Below, in pieces: positions 8,170 through 27,240 of a DNA stretch of 30,666 nt. The notes beneath the pieces are model-generated. The model saw only the letters and a program-made list of their open reading frames with translations, did not search any database and was not told the DNA's origin. Position 1 is the first letter of the stretch. Each line of letters starts with the position of its first letter. A program made the translations under genes and the position numbers. The DNA lies in the NCBI GenBank assembly GCA_018238625.1, contig JABCSY010000049.1, forward strand, positions 1 to 30,666, given 5' to 3'. This DNA comes from Promethearchaeota archaeon. GTDB taxonomy: Archaea; Asgardarchaeota; Lokiarchaeia; Sigyniarchaeales; SOKP01.

Positions 8170-8419
8170 ATATATAAATAAAATTATAAGGTTTAATTAT
8201 TTTATTACTGAGACTAAAAAGTATGATAAAATAAGGAATAATAAATCAATGTTTACTAATTTTTCCTTAGATTATAGATATTGTTGAATTCTCCCAAGAT
8301 TGTTTTAATTGGTACATCGCTTTTGCTAATTTAATACAAATTTGAATGTTTTCAGTTTAATTTTAAAAGAAATAGTAAATAGTAAAAAAAAGAAATGTAA
8401 TCTAATAGTATAAAATGGT

Positions 8420-11113
8420 TTATTTTTTCCTTTGTTCAATTTCTGCCTGAGCAGCGGCAATTCTCGCGACTGGGATTCTAAATGGAGAACATGATACATA
8501 ATCCAAACCTATTGAATGAGCAAACTTGATCGAGCTCGGCTCGCCTCCATGTTCACCACAAATCCCAAGCTTTAAGTCCGGTCTAGTTTTTCGGCCTAAC
8601 TCAATAGCTATTTTCATTAATTTGCCTACGCCGTCTTGATCTAAGAATTCAAAAGGATTTCGTTCTAAAATTTCTTTATTTAGATATACAGGAATGAATT
8701 TTCCTTCAGCGTCGTCTCGGCTAAATCCAAAGGTCATTTGAGTTAGATCGTTAGTACCAAACGAGAAAAACTCGGCTTCCGTGGCTATTTCATCGGCAGT
8801 TAAAGCGGCTCTCGGGATCTCGATCATTGTGCCAAATTTGTAATCTAACTCGACGCCATATTCCTTAATAGTTTCTTCTGCTATTTCAAGCAATTGAGAT
8901 TTGACAAATTGTAGTTCTGAAATCATACCAATAAGAGGAATCATTACTTCAGGTATAACATTAACACCTTTTAATTTAAGTTCGCAAGCTGCTTGAAATA
9001 TAGCCCTTACTTGCATCTCGTTTATCTCAGGCCAAACAATCCCAAGTCGGCAACCCCTTAATCCCATCATCGGATTTTCTTCGGAGAGCGATCTAATCAA
9101 TCTGATGACTTTATTTTTCTTTTTGAGTTCCTCATCGAGTGGACTAATCTCTAACAGAGTTTTTGACAAAGAATTCGTCATTTGTAGTTCTTGACGCTCC
9201 AGTAAAACTGTGGATAACTCAGGTAAGAACTCATGAAGTGGAGGATCTAATAATCTAATGGTCACTGGTTTTCCCTCCATAATTTTAAAAATCTCTAAGA
9301 AATCGCCTTTTTGCATTGGTAAAATCTTATTTAGGGCGTCTTGACGGTCTTCTTTTGTTTGTGCCATTATCATTTTTTGTACAACCGGTAACCTCTCTTG
9401 TGCCATGAACATGTGCTCTGTCCTACATAACCCAATACCCTCAGCACCGAATTCTATGGCTTTGTTGGCATCTACAGGGGTATCTGCGTTTGCTCGTACG
9501 CCCATAGTTCTAATCTCGTCTGCAATTTCAAGTAATTCTAAAAATTCTCCTTTAATTTCGGGTTGAACCAAAGGAACTTTTCCTTCTATGACGCGTCCTG
9601 TCGTGCCATCAATCGTTATATAATCCCCTTCTTCAATTACAGTTCCAGCTACTCTGAATTCTTTGTTTTCCTCGTCGATTTCGATATCTTGAGCCCCAAC
9701 AACAGCTGGTTTACCCATTCCTCTCGCAACAACAGCTGCGTGAGAAGTTTTTCCACCAAACTGAGTCAATACACCGCTAGAGGCGTATAATCCATGAACA
9801 TCTTCAGGTTTAGTTTGAGGTCGAACTAATATAATCTCTTCTTCTCCAGAATTCGCTAATTCTTCGCACCTATCCGAGTCAAATATCGCAATTCCCGAAA
9901 CTGCGCCCGGTGATGCGTTAATGCCTTTTGCTAAAACATGTACGATAGCATCCTCATCGATGCTTTTAAATAAAAGCTTAGATATTTTATCTGGGTCAAT
10001 GCTCATTATTGCTTTTTCTTTATCTATTAAACCTTCTTTGACCATGTCTACAGCGATTTTAACTGCTGCCGATGGAGTGCGCTTACCATTTCGAGTCTGT
10101 AAAATGAATAACTTTCCATCTTCGATCGTAAACTCGATATCTTGCATATCTCTATAATGATTCTCGAGCTTAACCATCGTACTCTTCAATTCTTTGTATA
10201 TTTCAGGGAATTCTTTGTCCATTTCATCAAGTTTTTTTGGAGTTCGAATTCCCGCAACAACATCTTCTCCTTGAGCGTTAGTTAGGTATTCCCCAAATTT
10301 TATATTATCTCCATTAGAAGGATCTCGCGTAAAAGCTACGCCAGTACCGGAGTTATCTCCTTTATTCCCAAAAACCATAGTTTGTATGTTAACTGCTGTT
10401 CCAAAATTAGGGATATTGGATATCTTCCTGTAAGTAATAGCTCTCTTAGTATTCCAAGATTTAAATACAGCTTCTATTGATAAAAATAATTGTTTAAAAG
10501 GATCTTGAGGAAATGGTGCGCCAATTTCTTTTTCGTAAAGAGCTTTATAATCTACAATAACATTTTGAAGATCAGCTACAGATAAATCTGTATCTTGAGC
10601 AGTTCGCGAGAGTTTTCGTTTATATTTATCCAAAATTCTTTCAAATTTCTCGTCGCCGATGCCCATGACAACATCGCCGAACATTTGAATAAACCTTCGG
10701 TACGAGTCGTACGCAAATCGGGGATTATCTACTTGTTCCGCCATACCTAAAACGGATTCGTCATTTAAGCCCAAATTTAAAACTGTGTCCATCATTCCAG
10801 GCATGCTCATTGGAGCCCCAGAACGTACGGATACTAATAAAGGATTTTTTTTATCTCCGAATTTCTTCTTGGTGAGCTCTTCAAGATGTTTTAGACGGTC
10901 TAAAACCATAGGTTCGACTTCTGCTATCAATTTTTTAGGACTTTTGAAGTAAATTAAACAAGCCTCTGTTGTTAGCGTAAATCCAGGAGGTATATTTAAC
11001 CCTAAATTGGTCATTTCTCCGAGATTTGCCCCTTTTCCTCCAAGTAGATTCTTTAACTCTTTTCTACCTTCGCTAAAATCATAAACATACTTGTGTTTTT
11101 CTGTGGTTGTCAT
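8420..11113 (-). CDS. ppdK: Pyruvate, phosphate dikinase
   Basis: LLGGKGANL, PLLVSVRSGA, MPGMMDTVLN, phospho-His motif GGKTSHAAVVARG, GIGLCRTEHMF, FFSFGTNDLTQ and GICGEHGG. Confidence 0.97.
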   Translation of the reverse strand: MTTTEKHKYVYDFSEGRKELKNLLGGKGANLGEMTNLGLNIPPGFTLTTEACLIYFKSPKKLIAEVEPMVLDRLKHLEELTKKKFGDKKNPLLVSVRSGAPMSMPGMMDTVLNLGLNDESVLGMAEQVDNPRFAYDSYRRFIQMFGDVVMGIGDEKFERILDKYKRKLSRTAQDTDLSVADLQNVIVDYKALYEKEIGAPFPQDPFKQLFLSIEAVFKSWNTKRAITYRKISNIPNFGTAVNIQTMVFGNKGDNSGTGVAFTRDPSNGDNIKFGEYLTNAQGEDVVAGIRTPKKLDEMDKEFPEIYKELKSTMVKLENHYRDMQDIEFTIEDGKLFILQTRNGKRTPSAAVKIAVDMVKEGLIDKEKAIMSIDPDKISKLLFKSIDEDAIVHVLAKGINASPGAVSGIAIFDSDRCEELANSGEEEIILVRPQTKPEDVHGLYASSGVLTQFGGKTSHAAVVARGMGKPAVVGAQDIEIDEENKEFRVAGTVIEEGDYITIDGTTGRVIEGKVPLVQPEIKGEFLELLEIADEIRTMGVRANADTPVDANKAIEFGAEGIGLCRTEHMFMAQERLPVVQKMIMAQTKEDRQDALNKILPMQKGDFLEIFKIMEGKPVTIRLLDPPLHEFLPELSTVLLERQELQMTNSLSKTLLEISPLDEELKKKNKVIRLIRSLSEENPMMGLRGCRLGIVWPEINEMQVRAIFQAACELKLKGVNVIPEVMIPLIGMISELQFVKSQLLEIAEETIKEYGVELDYKFGTMIEIPRAALTADEIATEAEFFSFGTNDLTQMTFGFSRDDAEGKFIPVYLNKEILERNPFEFLDQDGVGKLMKIAIELGRKTRPDLKLGICGEHGGEPSSIKFAHSIGLDYVSCSPFRIPVARIAAAQAEIEQRKK

Positions 11114-11524: not shown

Positions 11525-12715
11525 ATGATATTAACTGAGATCATTCAGGTAAAGAGATCAAAGGAACTGTCTAAACTGTGCCACTTAGCTAAGAATTTAT
11601 ATAATTTATCTAATTGGTATTATAGACAAGATTTCTTCAATTTGGGTACTTTTCTCAGTTATTACGATCTGGATTTCGTTTTAAAACGTCATGAATGCTA
11701 TAAGAACTTGCCAGCTCAAACTTCTCAACAAATATTAAAGTTGGTAATCAAGAATTGGAAATCTTACTTTAGAGCCAAGAGAGAATGGAACGCGAACAAG
11801 TTCAAGTTTAAGCGCGTTCCTAAGATACCAAGATACAAGAGAAAAGATGGCGAGTCCATTGTCATTTTCACGAATCAGAACGCAAGAATAAAAGACGATG
11901 GATGCCTTCATTTTCCCAAGAAATGCGATTTAAAACCTGTTAAGACTCGCATTACACAATTTCAACAGGTTAGGATAATACCGTTAGGGATTATATATAA
12001 AATAGAAATAATACACGAGAGAGAAGCAAAAGATTTAGGTTTGAATGAGGACGCTGTATTAAGCGTTGATTTGGGTTTGAACAATCTCATAACTGCTGTA
12101 AATAATAAAGGTTTGAAGCCTTTTATTGTTAAAGGTGGGAACGTCAAATCTGTAAATCATTATTACAACAAGCAATTAGCACGTTATAGAAGCGTTGAAA
12201 GTAAGAAGGGTAATCTTGTAGATACTAAAAGAATTAGGAGGTTACACCTAAAGAGAAATAACAAGATTATAGATCACTTCCACAAGATCTCTAAGAACGT
12301 GATTACATATTGTAAAGAAAACGATATAGGGACGATAGTAATTGGATACAACGAAGGTTGGAAGCAGAAATGCAATATGGGGAGGGTAAACAATCAAAAA
12401 TTTGTGCAAATTCCTTTTAATAAATTATTTCGGCAGATTGCATATAAAGGAGAGTTGATTGGTGTTGACGTAGTGTCAATAGACGAGAGTTATACTAGTA
12501 AATGCTCGTTTTTAGATGGAGAAGAAATCAAGAAACATTCCAAGTATGCGGGTAAGAGAGTTAAAAGAGGATTGTTTAAATCTCGCAATGGAACGATTAT
12601 TAATGCCGACGTGAATGCCGGATACAACATCATGAAGAAAGCATTCCCAAATTCTATAACTGATGATGGGATACAGGGTTTGGTGTTAACCCCAGAAGTT
12701 GTCAAGATTTCTTGA
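11525..12715 (+). CDS. tnpB: TnpB RNA-guided endonuclease (IS607-associated)
   Basis: LCHLAKNLYN, LPAQTSQQ, RuvC-I SVDLG (D182), IVIGYN..WKQ, NQKFVQIPF, DESYTSKC and RuvC-III NADVNAG (D362). Confidence 0.93.
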   Translation: MILTEIIQVKRSKELSKLCHLAKNLYNLSNWYYRQDFFNLGTFLSYYDLDFVLKRHECYKNLPAQTSQQILKLVIKNWKSYFRAKREWNANKFKFKRVPKIPRYKRKDGESIVIFTNQNARIKDDGCLHFPKKCDLKPVKTRITQFQQVRIIPLGIIYKIEIIHEREAKDLGLNEDAVLSVDLGLNNLITAVNNKGLKPFIVKGGNVKSVNHYYNKQLARYRSVESKKGNLVDTKRIRRLHLKRNNKIIDHFHKISKNVITYCKENDIGTIVIGYNEGWKQKCNMGRVNNQKFVQIPFNKLFRQIAYKGELIGVDVVSIDESYTSKCSFLDGEEIKKHSKYAGKRVKRGLFKSRNGTIINADVNAGYNIMKKAFPNSITDDGIQGLVLTPEVVKIS

Positions 12716-19043: not shown

Positions 19044-19481
19044 ATGATTGATGACGAAAATGATGAGGACATCTTAAATAAGAGCGTTTCTCTCAAGAAA
19101 GTAATGAAGAATATTTTGTTAATTTTATTAATAGGCGTAGGTGCCTTATTTATTTACCTCGGTGGAGAAAATCAAACGACCAATTTTATGATAGGTTTTT
19201 CGTTAATCTGTTTAGGTACTTCATTAATTCAAATTCAAAAACAGAAAACAGAGCCAATTAGACAAACATTAACGATACTTGCTTGTAATTTGTGTAATAT
19301 AACTAACGTAAGACATTACGAACATGGAGATTACGTTTTTAAAGAAATTGGCTCATGCGATAAATGCAACGAATCAATGAGAATAAAACAAATTTACAAC
19401 GTCAAGTTAAAAAAGCCTACAATACAAACTAAAAAATCTGACGAAAAAAAGAAGAAAGAAGAGGAAAAAGTTAAAGCCTAA
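19044..19481 (+). CDS. Hypothetical 2-TM protein with a CxxC…GDYVFK…CxxC zinc site
   Basis: Two TM segments followed by CNLC and CDKC. Confidence 0.75.
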   Translation: MIDDENDEDILNKSVSLKKVMKNILLILLIGVGALFIYLGGENQTTNFMIGFSLICLGTSLIQIQKQKTEPIRQTLTILACNLCNITNVRHYEHGDYVFKEIGSCDKCNESMRIKQIYNVKLKKPTIQTKKSDEKKKKEEEKVKA

Positions 19482-19985: not shown

Positions 19986-21515
19986 TCAGGTATCTTTAGC
20001 TTCTGGAATCAAAACAATAAAATTACTTCCCTTTGTATGGTCTCCTTTAATTCGATCCTCCACCCATATCCTTCCCTTGTAAGATTTAATAATTTGAGTA
20101 ATAAGTGACAATCCAATCCCCATACCCTTTCCTCCCTTCAAATCTTTATAACCTTCTAGGAATATATTCTCTTTATTTGAATCTTGAATTCCTATTCCAT
20201 TATCTTTGAATTCTAATCTCACGTAGTTCCGATCACTTAATTTTTCTTTTGTAATAGTGATAATTATTTCTGGAACTGCATTATGGTTATATTTTATTGC
20301 ATTAATTAAAATATTTTCAAAAACATCTGCTAAGATTTCATTTGCGCTTACAATAATTTGTTTCTCCATCGATTCGACTTTTATTTCAATTCTATCGCTT
20401 AGCATACTCTCTCTTACATAATTGAGGGCATTTGATAAGTATTCTAAAAGAGGTGTGGGTTTTAACTCTATTTCATCTTTTTCAATCTCAGCTAATTTCC
20501 TGATATTTGAAATTAAATTTTTTCCTCTTAATAATTGGCTATTGATGTTTTTAAAAAGGCTCTTAGGCTTTTCAGAATTAAGGTCTGCTCGGTTTTTTCT
20601 CTCCTGATCTAGCAGATATAACGACATTGATATATTCTGAATGATATTGCTAATATCGTGAGTAAACAAGTCCTTGTAAAGAGTAGATCTATTGTAAGCT
20701 TCTTCATATTTTATTTCAGTCTCCCTTAGATTTTCTTCCACTTTTCGCAACTTTTCTACGAGTTGTTTTCTCTTAGGCAGAATTACAAGTCTCAAGGAGA
20801 AAGGTTTTTTTAAGAATAAATCTAAACTTTTTTTATGAATGATCATAAAAGTTAGGAGAAAAGGGCTAAAGCAAATACCCAAAATAAACTTTCCTAAAAC
20901 GCTTCCCACTATAAACTGTCCAAATTCAGGTTCAAAGAATGAAACGATGAATGGAAATAAAAAACCATCCAAGCATAGTATTCCTATGAAAATTACAATA
21001 TATAGGACAATAATTAGAAAGTTAAGCTTAAAATATTCTTTAGTTTTTTCTAACAAGTAAAACATAACAAGAATTTCTATTATAAAAACAAACGAACTAA
21101 CTATGTTAATCGTAATTGTTGTACTGAAAAGCCCCGGAGATACAGAAAAAATATTAATGGTTGTAGGGGCGCTTAAAATTGCTACCAATAACTGATACAA
21201 GAAATACAGAAAAAAGTTAAAAATCAACTGAATACTTATTAGATTTCTTACTACAGTTGGATTTTGAGATGCTACGCCAATAAAAAATGTGATTAGGATG
21301 ATCGAAGAGTAAGCGATATTTCCTCCAGTAATTACAAGATCTTCAGATATTTGTAGTGAATACAAGACAGCAAATAATTGAGTGAAAACATATAAGAATC
21401 CAAAATAAGAATAAAAGAAAGCGGTAGAATTGAATGCTCGGAATACTGTTATTACCAGAAGAGGTGAAAGGCCATAAATTAAAATATGCAATAGTAAGAA
21501 TAATAGAGGTGTCAA
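19986..21515 (-). CDS. Membrane sensor histidine kinase (multi-TM N-terminal domain, HisKA, HATPase)
   Basis: H-box FTHDISN, N-box ENILINAIKY, G1 DNGIGI and G2 GKGMGIGLS; about 7 TM at the N-terminus; GGAGGA RBS before the TTG start. Confidence 0.92.
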   Translation of the reverse strand: MTPLLFLLLHILIYGLSPLLVITVFRAFNSTAFFYSYFGFLYVFTQLFAVLYSLQISEDLVITGGNIAYSSIILITFFIGVASQNPTVVRNLISIQLIFNFFLYFLYQLLVAILSAPTTINIFSVSPGLFSTTITINIVSSFVFIIEILVMFYLLEKTKEYFKLNFLIIVLYIVIFIGILCLDGFLFPFIVSFFEPEFGQFIVGSVLGKFILGICFSPFLLTFMIIHKKSLDLFLKKPFSLRLVILPKRKQLVEKLRKVEENLRETEIKYEEAYNRSTLYKDLFTHDISNIIQNISMSLYLLDQERKNRADLNSEKPKSLFKNINSQLLRGKNLISNIRKLAEIEKDEIELKPTPLLEYLSNALNYVRESMLSDRIEIKVESMEKQIIVSANEILADVFENILINAIKYNHNAVPEIIITITKEKLSDRNYVRLEFKDNGIGIQDSNKENIFLEGYKDLKGGKGMGIGLSLITQIIKSYKGRIWVEDRIKGDHTKGSNFIVLIPEAKDT

Positions 21516-21650
21516 TCTTTTTCTCCTCCAAATTAATGATTTAGTAGCAAAATTCTTATACGGTAATATAGAATAATCCAGTTTAATAAAAAAAGTTTTT
21601 CCTAAAAATGTTGGAGTAGCAAAATTTTTTAGGAGACATTAACTAGATAT

Positions 21651-21656
21651 TTTATA
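21651..21656 (+). promoter_or_regulatory. Candidate TATA box for the Phe-rich leader ORF
   Basis: TTTATA about 30 nt upstream of ATG 21685, the spacing expected for a near-leaderless archaeal transcript. Confidence 0.35.
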
Positions 21657-21684
21657 GTTATTGAATATTTGAGAAGAGTATATT

Positions 21685-21774
21685 ATGAAGCTTTTTAGTT
21701 ATTTATTACTAAATTCAAAACAATTCTATCAAGATTCATTTATCTTTGGCTTCTTTATTTTGCCAAGGGAATAA
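21685..21774 (+). CDS. Putative Phe-rich leader peptide (pheM/pheL-like), 29 aa
   Basis: MKLFSYLLLNSKQFYQDSFIFGFFILPRE*. Six Phe, four of them within six codons; overlaps alternative stems; lies upstream of pheS-pheT-pheA. Confidence 0.4.
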   Translation: MKLFSYLLLNSKQFYQDSFIFGFFILPRE

Positions 21775-21803
21775 CTATATTATTTTACTTTCTTTCCCTT
21801 GGC
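21762..21803 (+). promoter_or_regulatory. GC-rich stem-loop (10-bp perfect inverted repeat)
   Basis: GCCAAGGGAA (21762-21771) pairs with TTCCCTTGGC (21794-21803); 22-nt loop. Confidence 0.6.
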
Positions 21804-21910
21804 TGCGGTTATATAAGAGAGTTGATCGTTTTATAATTAATTGTATACTTTATTCAATCTCAAGCTATCGTTCTAATTCATGAACGAGCAATTTAAAACG
21901 ATTAATTCCA

Positions 21911-21925
21911 CGAAAGATTTAAAAA
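21911..21925 (+). promoter_or_regulatory. Candidate BRE-TATA promoter for pheS
   Basis: CGAAAG followed by TTTAAAAA, ending about 55 nt upstream of the pheS ATG. Confidence 0.45.
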
Positions 21926-21980
21926 GGTTAAAGATTTAGAAAAAATATAACGAAAAGTAAAATGATTTTGATTTTAAGAC

Positions 21981-23516
21981 ATGACGATTAAATTAAAGAA
22001 ACAAGTTATTGAAATTCTCAAAGTTCTGAAGAGTAAAAGCACAGAGCTTATGGCAATAGAATTAGCAAAAGAATTAAATGTTGATTATATAGTACTCATG
22101 GCAGCTATTAACGATCTCATCGATGAAAAATTAGGTGGATTCAAAGAAGAAGAAATAAATCAAATATCTTTAAACGATGAGGGGTTAAATTACTTAGAAG
22201 TCGGATTACCAGAGCGTAAATTGCTTAATTTATTGAATAAATCTGACATTAAAGAGATTGGTATAACAGAATTCCTTAACAAATCTAAATTAGACAATAA
22301 GATTTTTTACGTTGGGCTTTCTAACATGAAAAAGCATCGTTGGGTCGCTCAAAGTAAAGCTACGGGAGAGAGTAAGGTCTTCCTCGTTGCTGAAGAGTTC
22401 CCCGCAACAGATGTTGAGAAATTTATGAAAAAATTCGAAAAGAGCCCAATCCTTAACTATTCTAAATTATCAAAAATTGAATTGGAATGCTTAGACCATC
22501 TAAATAAAAGGAAATTAATAAAAAAAGCAAGAAAAACGCAACGAATTATTTTTCTAACAAAAAAGGGTAGAGATATAAAATTATCTGAAATTAAAGAGTT
22601 GAAGCATGTAAGCAAACTCACCTCGGAGATGCTTAGCTCTGGCTCTTGGAAAGATTACAATTTAAAAGCGTTTGATGTGACCAAACCAGGACCTTCATTG
22701 AAAGGGGGAAAATATCATCCTCTCGTTAATCTCATTAACGAAATCAGAGAGGTTTTTATTTCGATGGGTTTTACGGAAATAAGAGGTCCAATCGTAGAAA
22801 GCGCATTTTATAACTTTGACGCGTTATTTCAACCGCAAGACCATCCTGCTCGCGAACTACAAGATACTTTCTATTTGAACAATCCAAAAATCGCGAAGTT
22901 GCCGGATAAAGATAAAGTAATGGCTGTTAAAGCTACACACGAAAATGGGGGCGATTCTAATTCGCTTGGATGGGGTTACGAATGGGACGAAGAGGTTGCA
23001 AAACAAACGGTATTAAGAACCCATACAACCGCCACAACTATAAGGCGTCTGGCTAAGTTTTATAGAGATAACGAAAAAACGCCTGTAAAAGTCTTTTGTA
23101 TCGATAGGGTTTTTCGAAACGAAAAATTAGATAAATCACATTTAGCTGAATTTACTCAAATAGAAGGTATCGTAATCGACGACCACGTAAACTTAAGCGA
23201 TTTAATTGGTTTATTATCAGAATTTTACAAGAAAATGGGATTTGAAAAAATTGTTACAAGACCGGGATTTTTCCCGTATACAGAACCAAGTATGGAAGTC
23301 TCCGTATATTACGATAAAATAGGAGAATGGTTAGAAATGGGTGGTTCAGGAATATTTAGACCTGAAGTAACGTATCCTTGGGGCATCAAAGAACCCACTC
23401 GAGTTTTAGCGTGGGGGCAAGGACTTGAACGCATAGCAATGTTATACTACGGCCGGAAGGACATTAGAGATTTGTATATTAATCCAATCAAATGGTTAAG
23501 ACAACAACCATATTAA
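21981..23516 (+). CDS. pheS: Phenylalanine--tRNA ligase alpha subunit, long archaeal/eukaryotic type
   Basis: FDALFQPQDHPARELQDTFY, LRTHTT, RVFRNE, EFTQIEG, FFPYTEPS, GGSGIFRPEV and GLERIAM. Confidence 0.97.
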   Translation: MTIKLKKQVIEILKVLKSKSTELMAIELAKELNVDYIVLMAAINDLIDEKLGGFKEEEINQISLNDEGLNYLEVGLPERKLLNLLNKSDIKEIGITEFLNKSKLDNKIFYVGLSNMKKHRWVAQSKATGESKVFLVAEEFPATDVEKFMKKFEKSPILNYSKLSKIELECLDHLNKRKLIKKARKTQRIIFLTKKGRDIKLSEIKELKHVSKLTSEMLSSGSWKDYNLKAFDVTKPGPSLKGGKYHPLVNLINEIREVFISMGFTEIRGPIVESAFYNFDALFQPQDHPARELQDTFYLNNPKIAKLPDKDKVMAVKATHENGGDSNSLGWGYEWDEEVAKQTVLRTHTTATTIRRLAKFYRDNEKTPVKVFCIDRVFRNEKLDKSHLAEFTQIEGIVIDDHVNLSDLIGLLSEFYKKMGFEKIVTRPGFFPYTEPSMEVSVYYDKIGEWLEMGGSGIFRPEVTYPWGIKEPTRVLAWGQGLERIAMLYYGRKDIRDLYINPIKWLRQQPY

Positions 23517-23532: not shown

Positions 23533-25209
23533 ATACCAACACTCGAATTAAAAATTGAAAGACTAGAAAGATTAGTTGGAAAAAAATTAGACTTAAAAGA
23601 ATTAGAATACGATTTGCAGTGGATAGGTTTAGATTTAGAAGACATTAACGAGGAAGAACAAAAAGTCAAAGTGGAGTATAATCCAAACCGACCTGATTTT
23701 TCTAGTCCAGAAGGTATAGCGAGGACCCTTAAAGGTTATTACGAAATTGAACTAGGGATACCTTCATTCGACATAACACCAAGTGATATTGTAATGAATG
23801 TGGACCCTAGCGTAAAAAAAGTAAGACCTTACATCGTATGTGGAATAGTTCGAAATATTGATTTAGGTGAGGACGAGGTAGCTACCTTGATGACCATTCA
23901 AGAGCACCTTCACTGGGCCGTTGGAAGAGATAGAAAAAAAGTTGCGATCGGAGTACACGACTTAGACAAAGTAAAAGCACCTTACAGATATACTGCCGTG
24001 GAACCAGGTTCAGTAAGTTTTACGCCTTTGCATGGAGATGGATATTCAATGAATTTAGAAGAGATTTTACTCCTTCACGATAAAGGCATTGAATACGCTC
24101 CCATTTTAGAAGGGAAAGAAGTTTACCCGGTAATTTTTGATAGCAATAACGAAGTTCTTTCGTTTCCTCCAATAATAAACGGAGTTCTAACAACTGTAAC
24201 TGAAGAAACGAAGAATTTATTCTTGGATTTGACTGGTACCGATTTTAACGCGGTAAATCTTGCTTTAAACATCTTATCAACGACTTTATCAGACATGGGA
24301 GCGAAAATTGAAAGTGTTAAAGTAAATTACGAAGGAGAAAAAGAAATTAATACCCCAAATTTAGATTCAAAAAAATGGGAAGTTGAAATTGACTATATTA
24401 ACGATTATATCGGTCTGAATTTATCTGCCGCTGAAATGATTAAATGTTTTAAGAAAAGTAGGCTGGAGGCTAAAAGATCCAAGAAAAAAGGATATTTAGA
24501 CATTTATGTTCCTGCCTTTCGAGGTGACATAATGCATCCAGTTGATTTCACTGAAGAAGTCGCGATCGGTTATGGATATTTTAATATACCAAAAACCATT
24601 CGAGAAGGATGCGTCGGAGAATATCACCCTATTCAATCGTTCTCTAATAAAATAAGACTAATTATGATCGGAGCAGGATATTTAGAAGTTCTTAATTTCA
24701 TTTTATCAAATTCTGAAAAACAATTCGATTATATGAAAAAAAAAATGGATGAATCCAAATTAATTCAAATTGCTAACCCTGTATCAAAAGAATACGATAC
24801 CATGCGGACTTCAATACTACCTAAATTAATGGAAACGATACGATTTAACATATCTGAAGAGAAACCAATTAGAATTTTTGAAGTTGGAGACATCATTCTA
24901 CTTTCGAAAGAAGAAGAAACCGGCGCAAAAAGAGAAATTCATCTTTCAGCGACGTCGTACCACGAAGACGCTGATTTTACAGAAATAAGGTCGACTTTAG
25001 ATTTCATCATGACGGCTCTTGGGCTTTATGATAAATACGAGATTAAGCCTGGGAAGAACCCAAGCTATATAAGCGGTCGTTATGGGGATATCTATGTAAA
25101 TGGTGAGAAAATTGGAGAGATTGGAGAGATCCATCCCGAAGTGTTGTTGAACTTTAAACTGGAGTTCCCCGTTGCCGGGTTAGAATTAAATTTGCAAAAA
25201 CTTTTGTAA
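23533..25209 (+). CDS. pheT: Phenylalanine--tRNA ligase beta subunit, archaeal type
   Basis: PNRPD, GRDRKKVAIGVHD, LSFPPIIN, DIMHPVD..EEVAIGYG and GEIHPEVL. The frame extends 27 codons upstream of the TTG at 23614 to ATA 23533 (IPTLE…), which follows AGGTGA. Confidence 0.93.
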   Translation: MPTLELKIERLERLVGKKLDLKELEYDLQWIGLDLEDINEEEQKVKVEYNPNRPDFSSPEGIARTLKGYYEIELGIPSFDITPSDIVMNVDPSVKKVRPYIVCGIVRNIDLGEDEVATLMTIQEHLHWAVGRDRKKVAIGVHDLDKVKAPYRYTAVEPGSVSFTPLHGDGYSMNLEEILLLHDKGIEYAPILEGKEVYPVIFDSNNEVLSFPPIINGVLTTVTEETKNLFLDLTGTDFNAVNLALNILSTTLSDMGAKIESVKVNYEGEKEINTPNLDSKKWEVEIDYINDYIGLNLSAAEMIKCFKKSRLEAKRSKKKGYLDIYVPAFRGDIMHPVDFTEEVAIGYGYFNIPKTIREGCVGEYHPIQSFSNKIRLIMIGAGYLEVLNFILSNSEKQFDYMKKKMDESKLIQIANPVSKEYDTMRTSILPKLMETIRFNISEEKPIRIFEVGDIILLSKEEETGAKREIHLSATSYHEDADFTEIRSTLDFIMTALGLYDKYEIKPGKNPSYISGRYGDIYVNGEKIGEIGEIHPEVLLNFKLEFPVAGLELNLQKLL

Positions 25210-25265
25210 ACTATATTTTTTCTAAATACTTATTTAATAATTATTACAATTATAGGGTGATTAAT

Positions 25266-26366
25266 ATGAGCAAAGAACAGAATTACAAAGAAGATTTAGA
25301 AGAGACCAGAAAAGAAATTAACGAAATTGACGATCGAATCGTTGATCTGTTGAATAAAAGAGGAAACATCGTAATTAAGATTGGAAATTTAAAGAAAAAT
25401 CTGAATTTAGAAATAGTTCAACCCAAAAGGGAGGTGGAAGTTATCGAGAGAATCAAAAATAAATCAACGATATTCGAAAAAGAAAGTATGGAAGCTATTT
25501 GGAAAGAAATTATTAGCGCAAGTAAGGTTATTCAAGACACAGTTACTAAAGTTGGATATTTAGGGCCAAAGGGCACTTTCACGCACCAAGCAGCCCTTGA
25601 ATCTTTTGCTAAAGCTGGAACGCAATTCATTCCGTGCAACTCAACTTCAGAAATCTTTGATGATGTTGAAAAAGAAATATTAAATTACGGGATTGTTCCA
25701 ATTGAAAATAGTTTTTATGGAACCGTGCGAGAGACGCTCGATTTATTGATTGAAAAAGAACTATTTATTTACGGAGAAGTCGAGATGAGAGTCGTCCAGA
25801 ATTTAATAGGCTTAAAAGAAGCAGAAATTTCTCTCGTAAAAAATGTTTTTTCACACCCCCAAGCATTTGCTCAAACCAAATCGTGGTTAAAAAGCAACCT
25901 ACCAAGCTCAAATTTAATTGATATTAGCTCAACTGCCGAAGCTATGCGGAAAATTAAAGAGTTAGCTGATAAATCTTACGCGGCGATTGGCACTGATTTT
26001 GCTGCGAGTATATACGATTTGAAAGTTCTGAACTCGAATATAGAAGATGACCCCTCTAACTTTACAAGGTTTTTAATTATTTCTAAACTAGAAAATCCAT
26101 TAAAAGCTGAAAAAATGAAAACATCAATCGTGTTTGTAACTAAACACATACCAGGAGCTCTATATTGGGTTTTAAAAATTTTTTCAGAGGCAGAGATCAA
26201 TTTGTCAAAAATCGAGTCAAGACCAAGAAAAAAAGGAAGGTGGGAATACATCTTTTTTATGGATTTTGAAGCTGACAAAAACGATCCTAGAGCGAAAAAA
26301 GCGCTCGAGCAAATGAAATCAAGCGTGATTTGGCAAAAAATCTTAGGAACATACCCTCTTAAATAA
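25266..26366 (+). CDS. pheA: Bifunctional chorismate mutase / prephenate dehydratase with an ACT domain
   Basis: R.EI..ID..IV.LL..R (CM type II); YLGPKGTFT, VPIENS, SHPQA and NFTRF (PDT); PGAL and INLSKIESRP (ACT). ATG 25266 follows GGGTGA. Confidence 0.95.
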   Translation: MSKEQNYKEDLEETRKEINEIDDRIVDLLNKRGNIVIKIGNLKKNLNLEIVQPKREVEVIERIKNKSTIFEKESMEAIWKEIISASKVIQDTVTKVGYLGPKGTFTHQAALESFAKAGTQFIPCNSTSEIFDDVEKEILNYGIVPIENSFYGTVRETLDLLIEKELFIYGEVEMRVVQNLIGLKEAEISLVKNVFSHPQAFAQTKSWLKSNLPSSNLIDISSTAEAMRKIKELADKSYAAIGTDFAASIYDLKVLNSNIEDDPSNFTRFLIISKLENPLKAEKMKTSIVFVTKHIPGALYWVLKIFSEAEINLSKIESRPRKKGRWEYIFFMDFEADKNDPRAKKALEQMKSSVIWQKILGTYPLK

Positions 26367-26514: not shown

Positions 26515-27240
26515 ATGGTTGGAAATGTAAGATTTGACGGAAGAACTTTCGATGAAATTAGGAAAACAACTATCGAAAGGGACTTTTTAAAGTACCCCGA
26601 AGGTTCCGTGTTAATCACTCAAGGAAACACAAAAGTAATCGTTACTGCCTCCGTTCTGGAAAATGTTCCGAGGTTTTTGGTAGATACAGGGTCGGGTTGG
26701 ATAACCGCAGAATATAATATGTTACCAAGAGCGACCCAAAATAGAAACAACAGAGAAAGAGAAAGAAAGGTAAAGGGTAGAACTCACGAAATACAGCGTT
26801 TAATAGGGAGGAGTATGAGAGCCGCGTTCAATTACGAGAAAATTGGCGAACGTACGATTAGAATTGATTGCGACGTCATACAAGCCGATGGCGGTACGAG
26901 ATGTGCCTCGATCACAGGAGCCTTTGTTGCCGTTTTTGACGCCATCAATTTCTTATATAACGAACAAAGAATATACGAGTTTCCCGATTACAAGGTCACT
27001 GCGGGCATATCGCTTGGTCTTAAAAATAACAAGGTTCTTTTAGACCTAAATTACGAAGAAGATTCTAAAGTAGATGTCGATTTTAACTTAGTAGCGAACG
27101 AAGATTTAGAAATTCTCGAAATTCAAGGAACTGCGGAAGGATTACCGTTTAATAAGGAGAAACTAAACGAAATAATCGAAGTCGGAGAAAAGGGTATAAT
27201 GGAATTGATTAAAATTCAAAAAAATGTATTGAACTTATAA
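26515..27240 (+). CDS. rph: Ribonuclease PH, bacterial type
   Basis: GWITAEYNMLPRAT, GRTHEIQRLIGRSMRA, GERTIRIDCDVIQADGGTRCASITG, DLNYEEDS and EIQGTAEG. Confidence 0.92.
   Translation: MVGNVRFDGRTFDEIRKTTIERDFLKYPEGSVLITQGNTKVIVTASVLENVPRFLVDTGSGWITAEYNMLPRATQNRNNRERERKVKGRTHEIQRLIGRSMRAAFNYEKIGERTIRIDCDVIQADGGTRCASITGAFVAVFDAINFLYNEQRIYEFPDYKVTAGISLGLKNNKVLLDLNYEEDSKVDVDFNLVANEDLEILEIQGTAEGLPFNKEKLNEIIEVGEKGIMELIKIQKNVLNL

Follow-up and report, generated by a model that had tools for sequence, protein, structure and literature searches.

Upstream of the phenylalanyl-tRNA synthetase (PheRS) genes of a Lokiarchaeia archaeon lies a short open reading frame (ORF) rich in Phe codons, and the question that this locus raises is whether a ribosome translating this ORF could gauge the supply of Phe-tRNA for the genes that follow. 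Within the window (the whole 30,666-nt stretch of DNA that was analysed) the leader ORF occupies 21685–21774 on the forward strand, and its 29 codons (MKLFSYLLLNSKQFYQDSFIFGFFILPRE), ATG start, 6 Phe and stop codon ending at 21774 match the original prediction in coordinates and content. The Phe codons cluster at 21739–21756 (+; family consensus F-F-F-x-F-F, the last Phe being near-invariant), and the whole element spans ~150 nt. The original prediction held that the position of a ribosome on this Phe-rich leader would gate mutually exclusive RNA stems with the wiring known from E. coli; as detailed below, ribosome position gating a stem at the stop codon is the part of this logic that we retain, while the E. 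coli-type wiring is not.

Downstream of the leader the gene order is pheS (21981–23516, +; PheRS alpha subunit, NF003210, 544 bits with a cut-off of 350), pheT (23533–25209, +; beta subunit, TIGR00471, 561 bits, apparent AUA start), pheA (25257–26366, +; chorismate mutase/prephenate dehydratase, NF008865, 274 bits with a cut-off of 219, and an additional chorismate mutase match under the cut-off at its N-terminus) and RNase PH. Upstream lies a histidine kinase gene on the opposite strand, preceded by coaD. PheS is 68–95% identical to that of named relatives, mostly Promethearchaeota/Promethearchaeia, that is, Lokiarchaeia within the Asgard archaea. The gene 5′ of the leader varies among relatives, and pheS begins ~205–237 nt after the Pro codon near the end of the leader ORF in most loci. 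pheA follows pheT in 13 of 16 assessable family loci (in two of these as the chorismate mutase part alone) and follows it in neither of the two genomes checked of f4, the GC-rich lineage; control of pheA by the leader is plausible only where pheA follows pheT. The apparent pheT start at 23533–23535 is AUA, 7 nt 3′ of a GGTGA ribosome-binding motif, and the codon aligned with it in 23 relatives is ATG in 17, ATA in 5 and TTG in 1, so non-AUG starts exist in this lineage. The kinase gene (19986–21515, –) between coaD and the leader encodes a vitamin-uptake-like sensor domain (PF20973) and is absent from close relatives, and a remnant resembling the end of coaD lies at 21613–21632. The RNase PH gene after pheA (26515–27240, +) is of bacterial type (TIGR01966, 330 bits, over the cut-off) and is also present in several relatives. 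Further away in the window are a TnpB-family RNA-guided endonuclease gene (11525–12715, +; NF040570) and a 145-aa ORF (19044–19481, +) without an NCBIfam or Pfam match that is conserved family-wide upstream of coaD-pheS.

DNA upstream of pheS was compared across 110 loci (30 plus 80 picked from class-wide matches), 86 of which belong to the family of the host (f1), host included. Of these 86, 84 carry the stem motif 5′ of pheS; of the two exceptions, one is a contig end and the other an N-gap at whose readable edge the tail of the motif can be seen. Conservation of the open frame, the stop codon and the pairing spans 12 genera; the loci are related, and all counts given here overstate their independence. 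The conservation check in relatives that the original prediction had proposed thereby came out in its favour for both the ORF and the main stem, and by sequence comparison the element is real, conserved and tied to pheST.

The main stem joins segment 2 (21762–21771, +), which lies under the codons Pro-Arg-Glu, to the pyrimidine-rich segment 3 (21794–21803, +), and the perfect 10-bp helix first described there is present in full. Its first six pairs are intact in 83/83 loci, the seventh is G-C in 45, A-U in 18 and G-U in 17 of the 83, and in the five loci of genus g12 the outer pair has become C-G; the mean fold z-score over 78 loci is –4.1. Segment 3, which is 73% pyrimidine and is paired within the stem, is followed by a 3-nt bulge and a tail (21804–21809, +). 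The bulge begins with a near-invariant U (78/78 loci outside g12), and in most relatives the GGA tail adds a further 3 bp to the stem, these extension pairs being kept in 66, 77 and 62 of 78 loci. A U4 tract 3′ of the stem occurs in 50 of 83 loci, compared with 31% of background 20-mers, and is absent from the 20 nt after the tail in the host genome.

Translation of the leader ORF is strongly implied by the same alignments. Among the 80 loci with enough clean sequence (L003 was omitted as a deletion) the main frame is stop-free over 22 codons in 74, compared with 20 and 3 for the other plus-strand frames, 8, 0 and 18 for the minus-strand frames and 14.6 (maximum 24) for shuffles. At least 18 codons are open in the Pro frame in 77 of 84 loci and fewer than 18 in the other 7; an ATG, TTG or GTG start lies 18–45 codons 5′ of Pro in 74 of the 84, most commonly at exactly 26, and 10 have no standard start. 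The variable N-terminal ten codons contain 8 stops/800 in frame versus 78 and 76 out of frame. The dN/dS proxy of this N-terminal peptide (0.67 versus 0.98 and 0.64, 48 close pairs) gives no clear indication of protein-level selection, and the leader peptide has no match in the protein collection or Pfam. A stop codon stands three codons past Pro in 71 of 84 loci as TAA (56), TAG (8) or TGA (7). Since the frame is kept without clear selection on the peptide and any of the stop codons serves at the same place, the leader has the marks of an ORF in which being translated counts for more than the peptide made.

Phe codons occupy positions Pro-8, -7, -6, -4 and -3 in 55, 43, 61, 64 and 79 of 84 loci, and the density per nine codons is 3.71 as compared with 2.21 for base shuffles, 200 of which peaked at 2.5. 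Might TTT codons and stems nevertheless have come together by chance in AT-rich intergenic DNA? The caution that TTT codons are common in such DNA holds insofar as Phe-rich short ORFs are frequent in the host genome, at least 4 Phe among the last 12 residues being found in 184 of 4107 short upstream ORFs, and Phe richness alone is not unusual; it does not extend to the GC-rich relatives, which keep their Phe codons. However, when the same 4107 ORFs (12–60 aa, from 2063 upstream regions) were scanned for a perfect stem of at least 9 bp and at least 5 G/C with one arm overlapping the ORF end, only the leader ORF was returned. The chance estimate that the original prediction had also proposed is thus a Phe cluster in excess of base shuffles and an ORF-plus-stem combination that is unique in the genome, conserved across 12 genera and present in GC-rich genomes as well; a chance origin is refuted by the conservation data, and we give it next to no weight.

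A covariance model (R1) recovers it in 24 of 25 family genomes, with one copy per genome, and finds 0 matches in 125 genomes outside the family and in 0 of 5 f3/f4 genomes; R1 also misses the GC-rich f4 variant described below, so that its zero counts do not amount to absence from other lineages. In the host genome, motif scans and the covariance model find a single copy and no paralogue. By eye, no obvious cognate-rich ORF with such a stem was seen upstream of pheT, pheA or 19 other matches (aminoacyl-tRNA synthetase families and one prephenate dehydrogenase), and the element was not seen upstream of pheS in 14 loci of family f2, where the gap before pheS is mostly short, or in 5 loci of other orders. 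As separate observations, ~90 nt of the tyrS upstream region (8170–8420) recur on contig C128, 5′ of position 746, before another synthetase gene of the Tyr/Trp family, which may reflect a duplicate or a contaminating strain (assembly contamination, 7.6%); many tRNA genes of the host genome, for example on C22, C125 and C177, have introns in unusual places, and ARAGORN misnames or overlooks them; and several stand directly 5′ of the cognate synthetase gene, such as tRNA-Cys before the synthetase gene on contig C61. Among the 19 tRNAs reported by ARAGORN and those added by a T-loop scan, no tRNA-Phe gene was identified in the assembly.

Several natural variants are informative. In genus g12 (five loci) a 1-nt shift drops Pro-Arg-Glu and leaves an open frame of 28–36 codons, probably starting at AUU; its last residues are Phe-Phe-Ile in four of the loci and Phe-Val-Ile in the fifth, and its TAG stop abuts the stem arm. 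A GC-rich variant occurs at the f4 loci L025 and L028, two of three assessable in that family, and on the metagenome contig L211, all at 53–61% GC. Its ATG lies 18 codons before Pro and opens a 21-residue peptide ending F-I-F-N-G-P-G-N, and it keeps the spacing of 8 nt between the final Phe codon and the stem arm and the stop at +3, with a 9-bp stem that is rewritten. Because these GC-rich loci keep their Phe codons, the codons are not explained by U-richness. At the same three loci we observed by eye that a segment before the AUG is complementary over 6–7 bp to the tail that follows the stem, both strands carrying changes, and that part of the ORF can pair with either of the two. L211 was the one match before pheS among 13 in a metagenome pattern scan, the other 12 looking like chance, and a fuzzy-pattern flag on L134 was rejected, as the pattern is not in its upstream region. 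Finally, L003 lacks the 5′ half of the leader, ~240–330 nt upstream of pheS. The junction falls in a 14-nt near-repeat common to the 3′ end of the kinase gene (~19990–20003) and the leader ORF, and the loss is apparently a deletion between near-identical 14-mers, a misassembly being possible.

The variants also bear on whether the element could be a gene for a small independent protein, or a structured RNA, that shares only synteny with pheS and works in trans or on a different target. It has a candidate promoter of its own upstream of that of pheS, as such a gene would, but constraint at the protein level is slight beyond the RNA helices, Pfam gives no match, the spacing from Phe codons to stem is fixed in two families, and Phe, the residue that recurs, is cognate to the genes that follow; we consider this explanation unlikely. 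A cis-acting Phe sensor of one kind or another is, on the comparative evidence, a probable role for the leader.

If the leader were wired like its E. coli counterparts, then additional helices competing with the main stem should be conserved. The original prediction proposed such a competitor between CTTTGGC (segment 1, 21744–21750, +), inside the Phe cluster, and GCCAAGG (21762–21768). Both sequences are there, but they can pair in only 1/83 loci, that of the host, most loci retaining 3–5 of the 7 pairs, and this 1:2 helix was discarded as a family feature. An alternative 7-bp hairpin between 21755–21761 and 21768–21774, which would join the stop codon to the last Phe codon, fits most loci, but it is weak (average –3.8 kcal/mol, z –0.5) and no more stable than shuffles. 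There is likewise no conserved 3:4 terminator helix, segment 3 pairing with motif D, a conserved motif further downstream, at –6.1 kcal/mol as compared with –6.0 for shuffles. The pairings 3:D, A:D, A:2, B:3 and Phe-cluster:2 were all rejected, as none has a cognate advantage and all lie within ~1.5 kcal/mol of shuffles; a mutual-information ranking of pairs was set aside as well, its signal being mostly phylogenetic. The Rfam model Phe_leader (RF01859) gave 0 matches in the host genome (150 of 2049 first-look candidates scored) with a matching E. coli control, and was absent from a local scan to E = 10, in which the locus gave six Rfam matches, all far below gathering scores, and no T-box. 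With segment 1 private to the host genome, no conserved 3:4 helix and no Phe_leader match, the E. coli-type wiring is not supported.

A different helix, which the original prediction had missed, is present instead. Segment A (21662–21672, +) in the 5′ UTR pairs with segment B (21729–21738, +; codons 15–18), enclosing the start codon of the ORF, and segment B would lie under a ribosome stalled on the Phe cluster. Over 76 loci the cognate A:B duplex averages –8.8 kcal/mol, as compared with –6.7 for non-cognate and –4.7 for shuffled partners, two control segments show no cognate advantage in the same test, and both sides change at 7 of 9 pairs. Pairing across the 22 pairs reaches 84.6% in an alignment of 59 sequences, as compared with 81.0% in column shuffles (0/500) and 37–54% when slid, control values being inflated by relatedness; the 12 pairs changed on both sides in that alignment are not in excess over column shuffles (92/500).

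The caveat that no classic hairpin-plus-U-tract terminator is evident was well placed, as no terminator hairpin was found, and any output of the leader should therefore be either factor-dependent or post-transcriptional. In the latter case ribosome position and stem 2:3 would together set the processing, decay or translation of a long pheST mRNA. The same conservation data speak for this, aCPSF1 is also a nuclease, and the missing terminator hairpin is as expected. However, a helix scan finds no conserved pairing between the leader and the pheS start region, from which it is separated by ~170 nt and a promoter, and we regard a sensor with post-transcriptional output as quite unlikely.

Where the leader transcript begins and what drives pheS were addressed with a promoter weight matrix (PWM) trained on 2059 upstream regions of the host genome. 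The TTTATA box of the original prediction is present at 21651–21656 but falls outside the top 10 promoter scores of 21501–21980; the family median best score in this zone (3.0 bits, at scattered positions) is below the genome 25th percentile (3.8 bits), and it was rejected as a promoter. A candidate promoter, P1, lies at 21618–21635 (+) as a BRE/TATA-like A-run followed by a T-run (5.4 bits, implied start ~21655), with a family median of 4.8 bits at a fixed distance (Pro-146/-145) and a T-tract that is conserved in the alignment. In most relatives P1 directly follows the stop codon of coaD, and its T-tract could instead be the U-tract terminator of that gene; whether gaps are divergent, tandem or convergent, T-tracts occur in them at a similar density (0.24–0.32 per kb). 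Segment A starts 5 nt downstream of TTTATA, and because helix A:B, if formed as RNA, includes segment A, the transcript should start at or before ~21660. Transcription of the leader thus probably begins at ~21655 or continues from coaD, the gene that stands before the leader in most relatives.

The downstream promoter that the original prediction had flagged as a caveat (21911–21925) proved to be strong: P2 (BRE plus TATA, 21910–21927, +) scores 9.6 bits, the best in the region and above the genome 95th percentile (7.4 bits), and its family median is 9.1 bits at –71 to –69 from the pheS ATG. An assembled metatranscriptome contig covers 21890–22140, across the P2 TATA box, but it is unstranded, comes from one study and may be DNA, and we did not count it; assembled RNA contigs gave no coverage of the leader ORF and stem. 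As P2 is strong and belongs to pheS itself, the leader can only modulate pheS expression. Upstream of P2 lies motif D (21873–21884, +; 67 of 73 loci), at a distance of 40–42 nt in 57 loci, 50 in 4, 28–29 in 5 and 59 in 1. Because these spacings step by about one helical turn, the pattern suggests a DNA-binding site, a candidate transcription-factor site for P2.

It is conceivable that the two promoters interfere. In such a model read-through from P1 under ample Phe would cross motif D and P2 and repress pheS, while in starved cells a stall would uncouple ribosome and polymerase, the stem and the U-rich tract would end the leader transcript, and P2 would be freed. The strength and conservation of P2, its helical phasing with motif D and the U-rich sequence after the stem would all suit this scheme, and stalled ribosomes usually favour factor-dependent termination according to the available part of a review that treats Rho (PMC13675443). 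However, a median-strength P1 would poorly repress a P2 among the top 5% (judged from PWM scores only), motif D is missing or shifted where the leader is kept (6 of 73 loci without a match; short spacers in L049, L050 and L053), and archaeal terminators mostly do without a hairpin in the available text of PMC7515710. We consider interference improbable.

The reading that we favour, at a probability of roughly 0.45, is a translation-coupled, factor-dependent attenuator that gauges charged tRNA-Phe and uses aCPSF1/FttA as the terminator nuclease. A transcript from ~21655, or in relatives one reading through from coaD, would carry the leader ORF. With ample Phe-tRNA the ribosome would reach the stop codon and sit on segment 2, so that segment 3, a putative aCPSF1/FttA loading site, would leave the polymerase single-stranded (the geometry comes from constrained folding, and the timing is our assumption); aCPSF1/FttA would load there, cut near U21804 and end the transcript. 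With scarce Phe-tRNA the ribosome would stall in the Phe cluster, stem 2:3 would form and hide the loading site, and read-through into pheS-pheT(-pheA) would add to the basal output of P2. Helix A:B, which is supported by covariation, would shut over the start codon whenever segment B is free of ribosomes; there it might hold back re-initiation or serve as a pause.

The required nuclease is encoded in the host genome (aCPSF1, TIGR03675, 873 bits, over the cut-off), and the available text of PMC7515710 reports that a Lokiarchaeum aCPSF1 orthologue terminates transcription in Methanococcus. FttA is described, in the accessible portion of PMC11616081, as binding U-rich RNA at –30 to –36 and cutting with a U at –23. 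When this geometry is scored over the 83 loci, U21804 ranks first among 82 positions, with the binding tract at the loop edge and the 5′ end of segment 3, a fit that is post hoc and partly reflects sequence conservation. With aCPSF1 present and the FttA geometry matching, attenuation of the mgtA/corA kind with aCPSF1 replacing Rho is therefore the best reading, at the probability given above.

Several difficulties have to be weighed against this attenuator. The first is one of distance, the archaeal ribosome footprint being 27 nt, with 15–16 nt from the P-site codon onward, in the available part of PMC7261190. In constrained folding the probability of stem 2:3 is 1.0 with the A site on the Phe codon at 21739 or 21745 and 0 at the stop codon, as the attenuator model requires, but it is also 0 when the invariant last Phe codon occupies the A site and the footprint is 27 nt, as a ribosome there overlaps 4–5 nt of the segment 2 arm. 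For the model to work, stalls would have to fall on Phe codons further 5′, which are less conserved, or the stem would have to persist up to the mRNA entry site of the ribosome; only such persistence would soften what is a real difficulty. Secondly, given P2 at 9.6 bits and P1 at 5.4, the added read-through may be small. Thirdly, after ribosome release nothing strong keeps segment 3 open. This last problem would be solved by an arrest peptide of the TnaC/SpeFL type, in which free Phe in the exit tunnel would hold the ribosome at Pro-Arg-Glu-stop with segment 2 masked, and the C-terminal motif is indeed strongly conserved (in the motif frame, Pro in 84/84 loci and Arg in 80/84). However, the Pro-Arg-Glu codons are at the same time the stem arm, with Pro always encoded by CCA, and this C-terminus is lost by the g12 frameshift and reads Gly-Pro-Gly-Asn in the GC-rich lineage. 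Residues conserved independently of RNA structure, as an arrest peptide would have, are thus not found, and we judge this explanation very unlikely.

Finally, the pheST leader can be compared with known systems. In E. coli, the Phe biosynthesis gene pheA is preceded by pheL, a Phe-rich leader ORF overlapped by stems. E. coli pheM-pheST likewise has a short Phe-rich ORF overlapped by stems before the PheRS genes (as described in the available part of PMC5371410). The Asgard leader shares with these classical attenuators the short ORF rich in cognate codons upstream of an operon; it differs from them in lacking both an intrinsic 3:4 terminator made of a GC hairpin and a U tract and any strong 1:2 or 3:4 helix that is conserved, in its 29 codons with Phe at the C-terminal end and an extra helix over the start codon, and in a second strong promoter between leader and gene, all read by archaeal machinery. 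Another parallel is offered by Salmonella mgtL-mgtA and corL-corA, where, in the accessible text of PMC12360218, complete translation of the upstream ORF reshapes the leader and unmasks a site for the termination factor Rho; here, however, the proposed factor is the nuclease aCPSF1/FttA and the proposed signal Phe-tRNA. The same excerpt describes tnaC and speFL, in which a ribosome at the leader stop codon likewise governs factor-dependent termination. Those leaders, however, sense a free metabolite through their peptide sequence and induce catabolic genes, whereas the end of the Asgard peptide is not conserved across lineages.

In archaea, premature termination by aCPSF1 has been proposed as a genome-wide regulatory step, which, unlike the proposed pheST leader, is tied to no leader ORF or amino-acid signal in the available part of that study (PMC8448881). 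Among the titles and abstract beginnings covered, with subscription journals mostly outside this coverage, we found no tested leader-peptide attenuator from archaea or Asgard archaea, and the word stem 'attenuat' does not occur in the accessible part of a 2026 termination review (PMC13675443). Competition between ribosome and FttA on nascent RNA is stated as a hypothesis in the accessible portion of PMC11616081, and the pheST leader makes it directly testable, with natural variants as controls. More broadly, we think it slightly better than an even bet that Asgard archaea practise amino-acid attenuation read out by the ribosome, a leader ORF together with an RNA stem gating the CPSF73-like nuclease aCPSF1/FttA and combining a bacterial-type sensor with a eukaryote-type cleavage terminator that is additive to or interfering with a second promoter, and that the pheST leader is one of a wider set. 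Ribosome-mediated control by amino acids is familiar from bacteria, and the Asgard leader, if this is true, would be an archaeal case of it.
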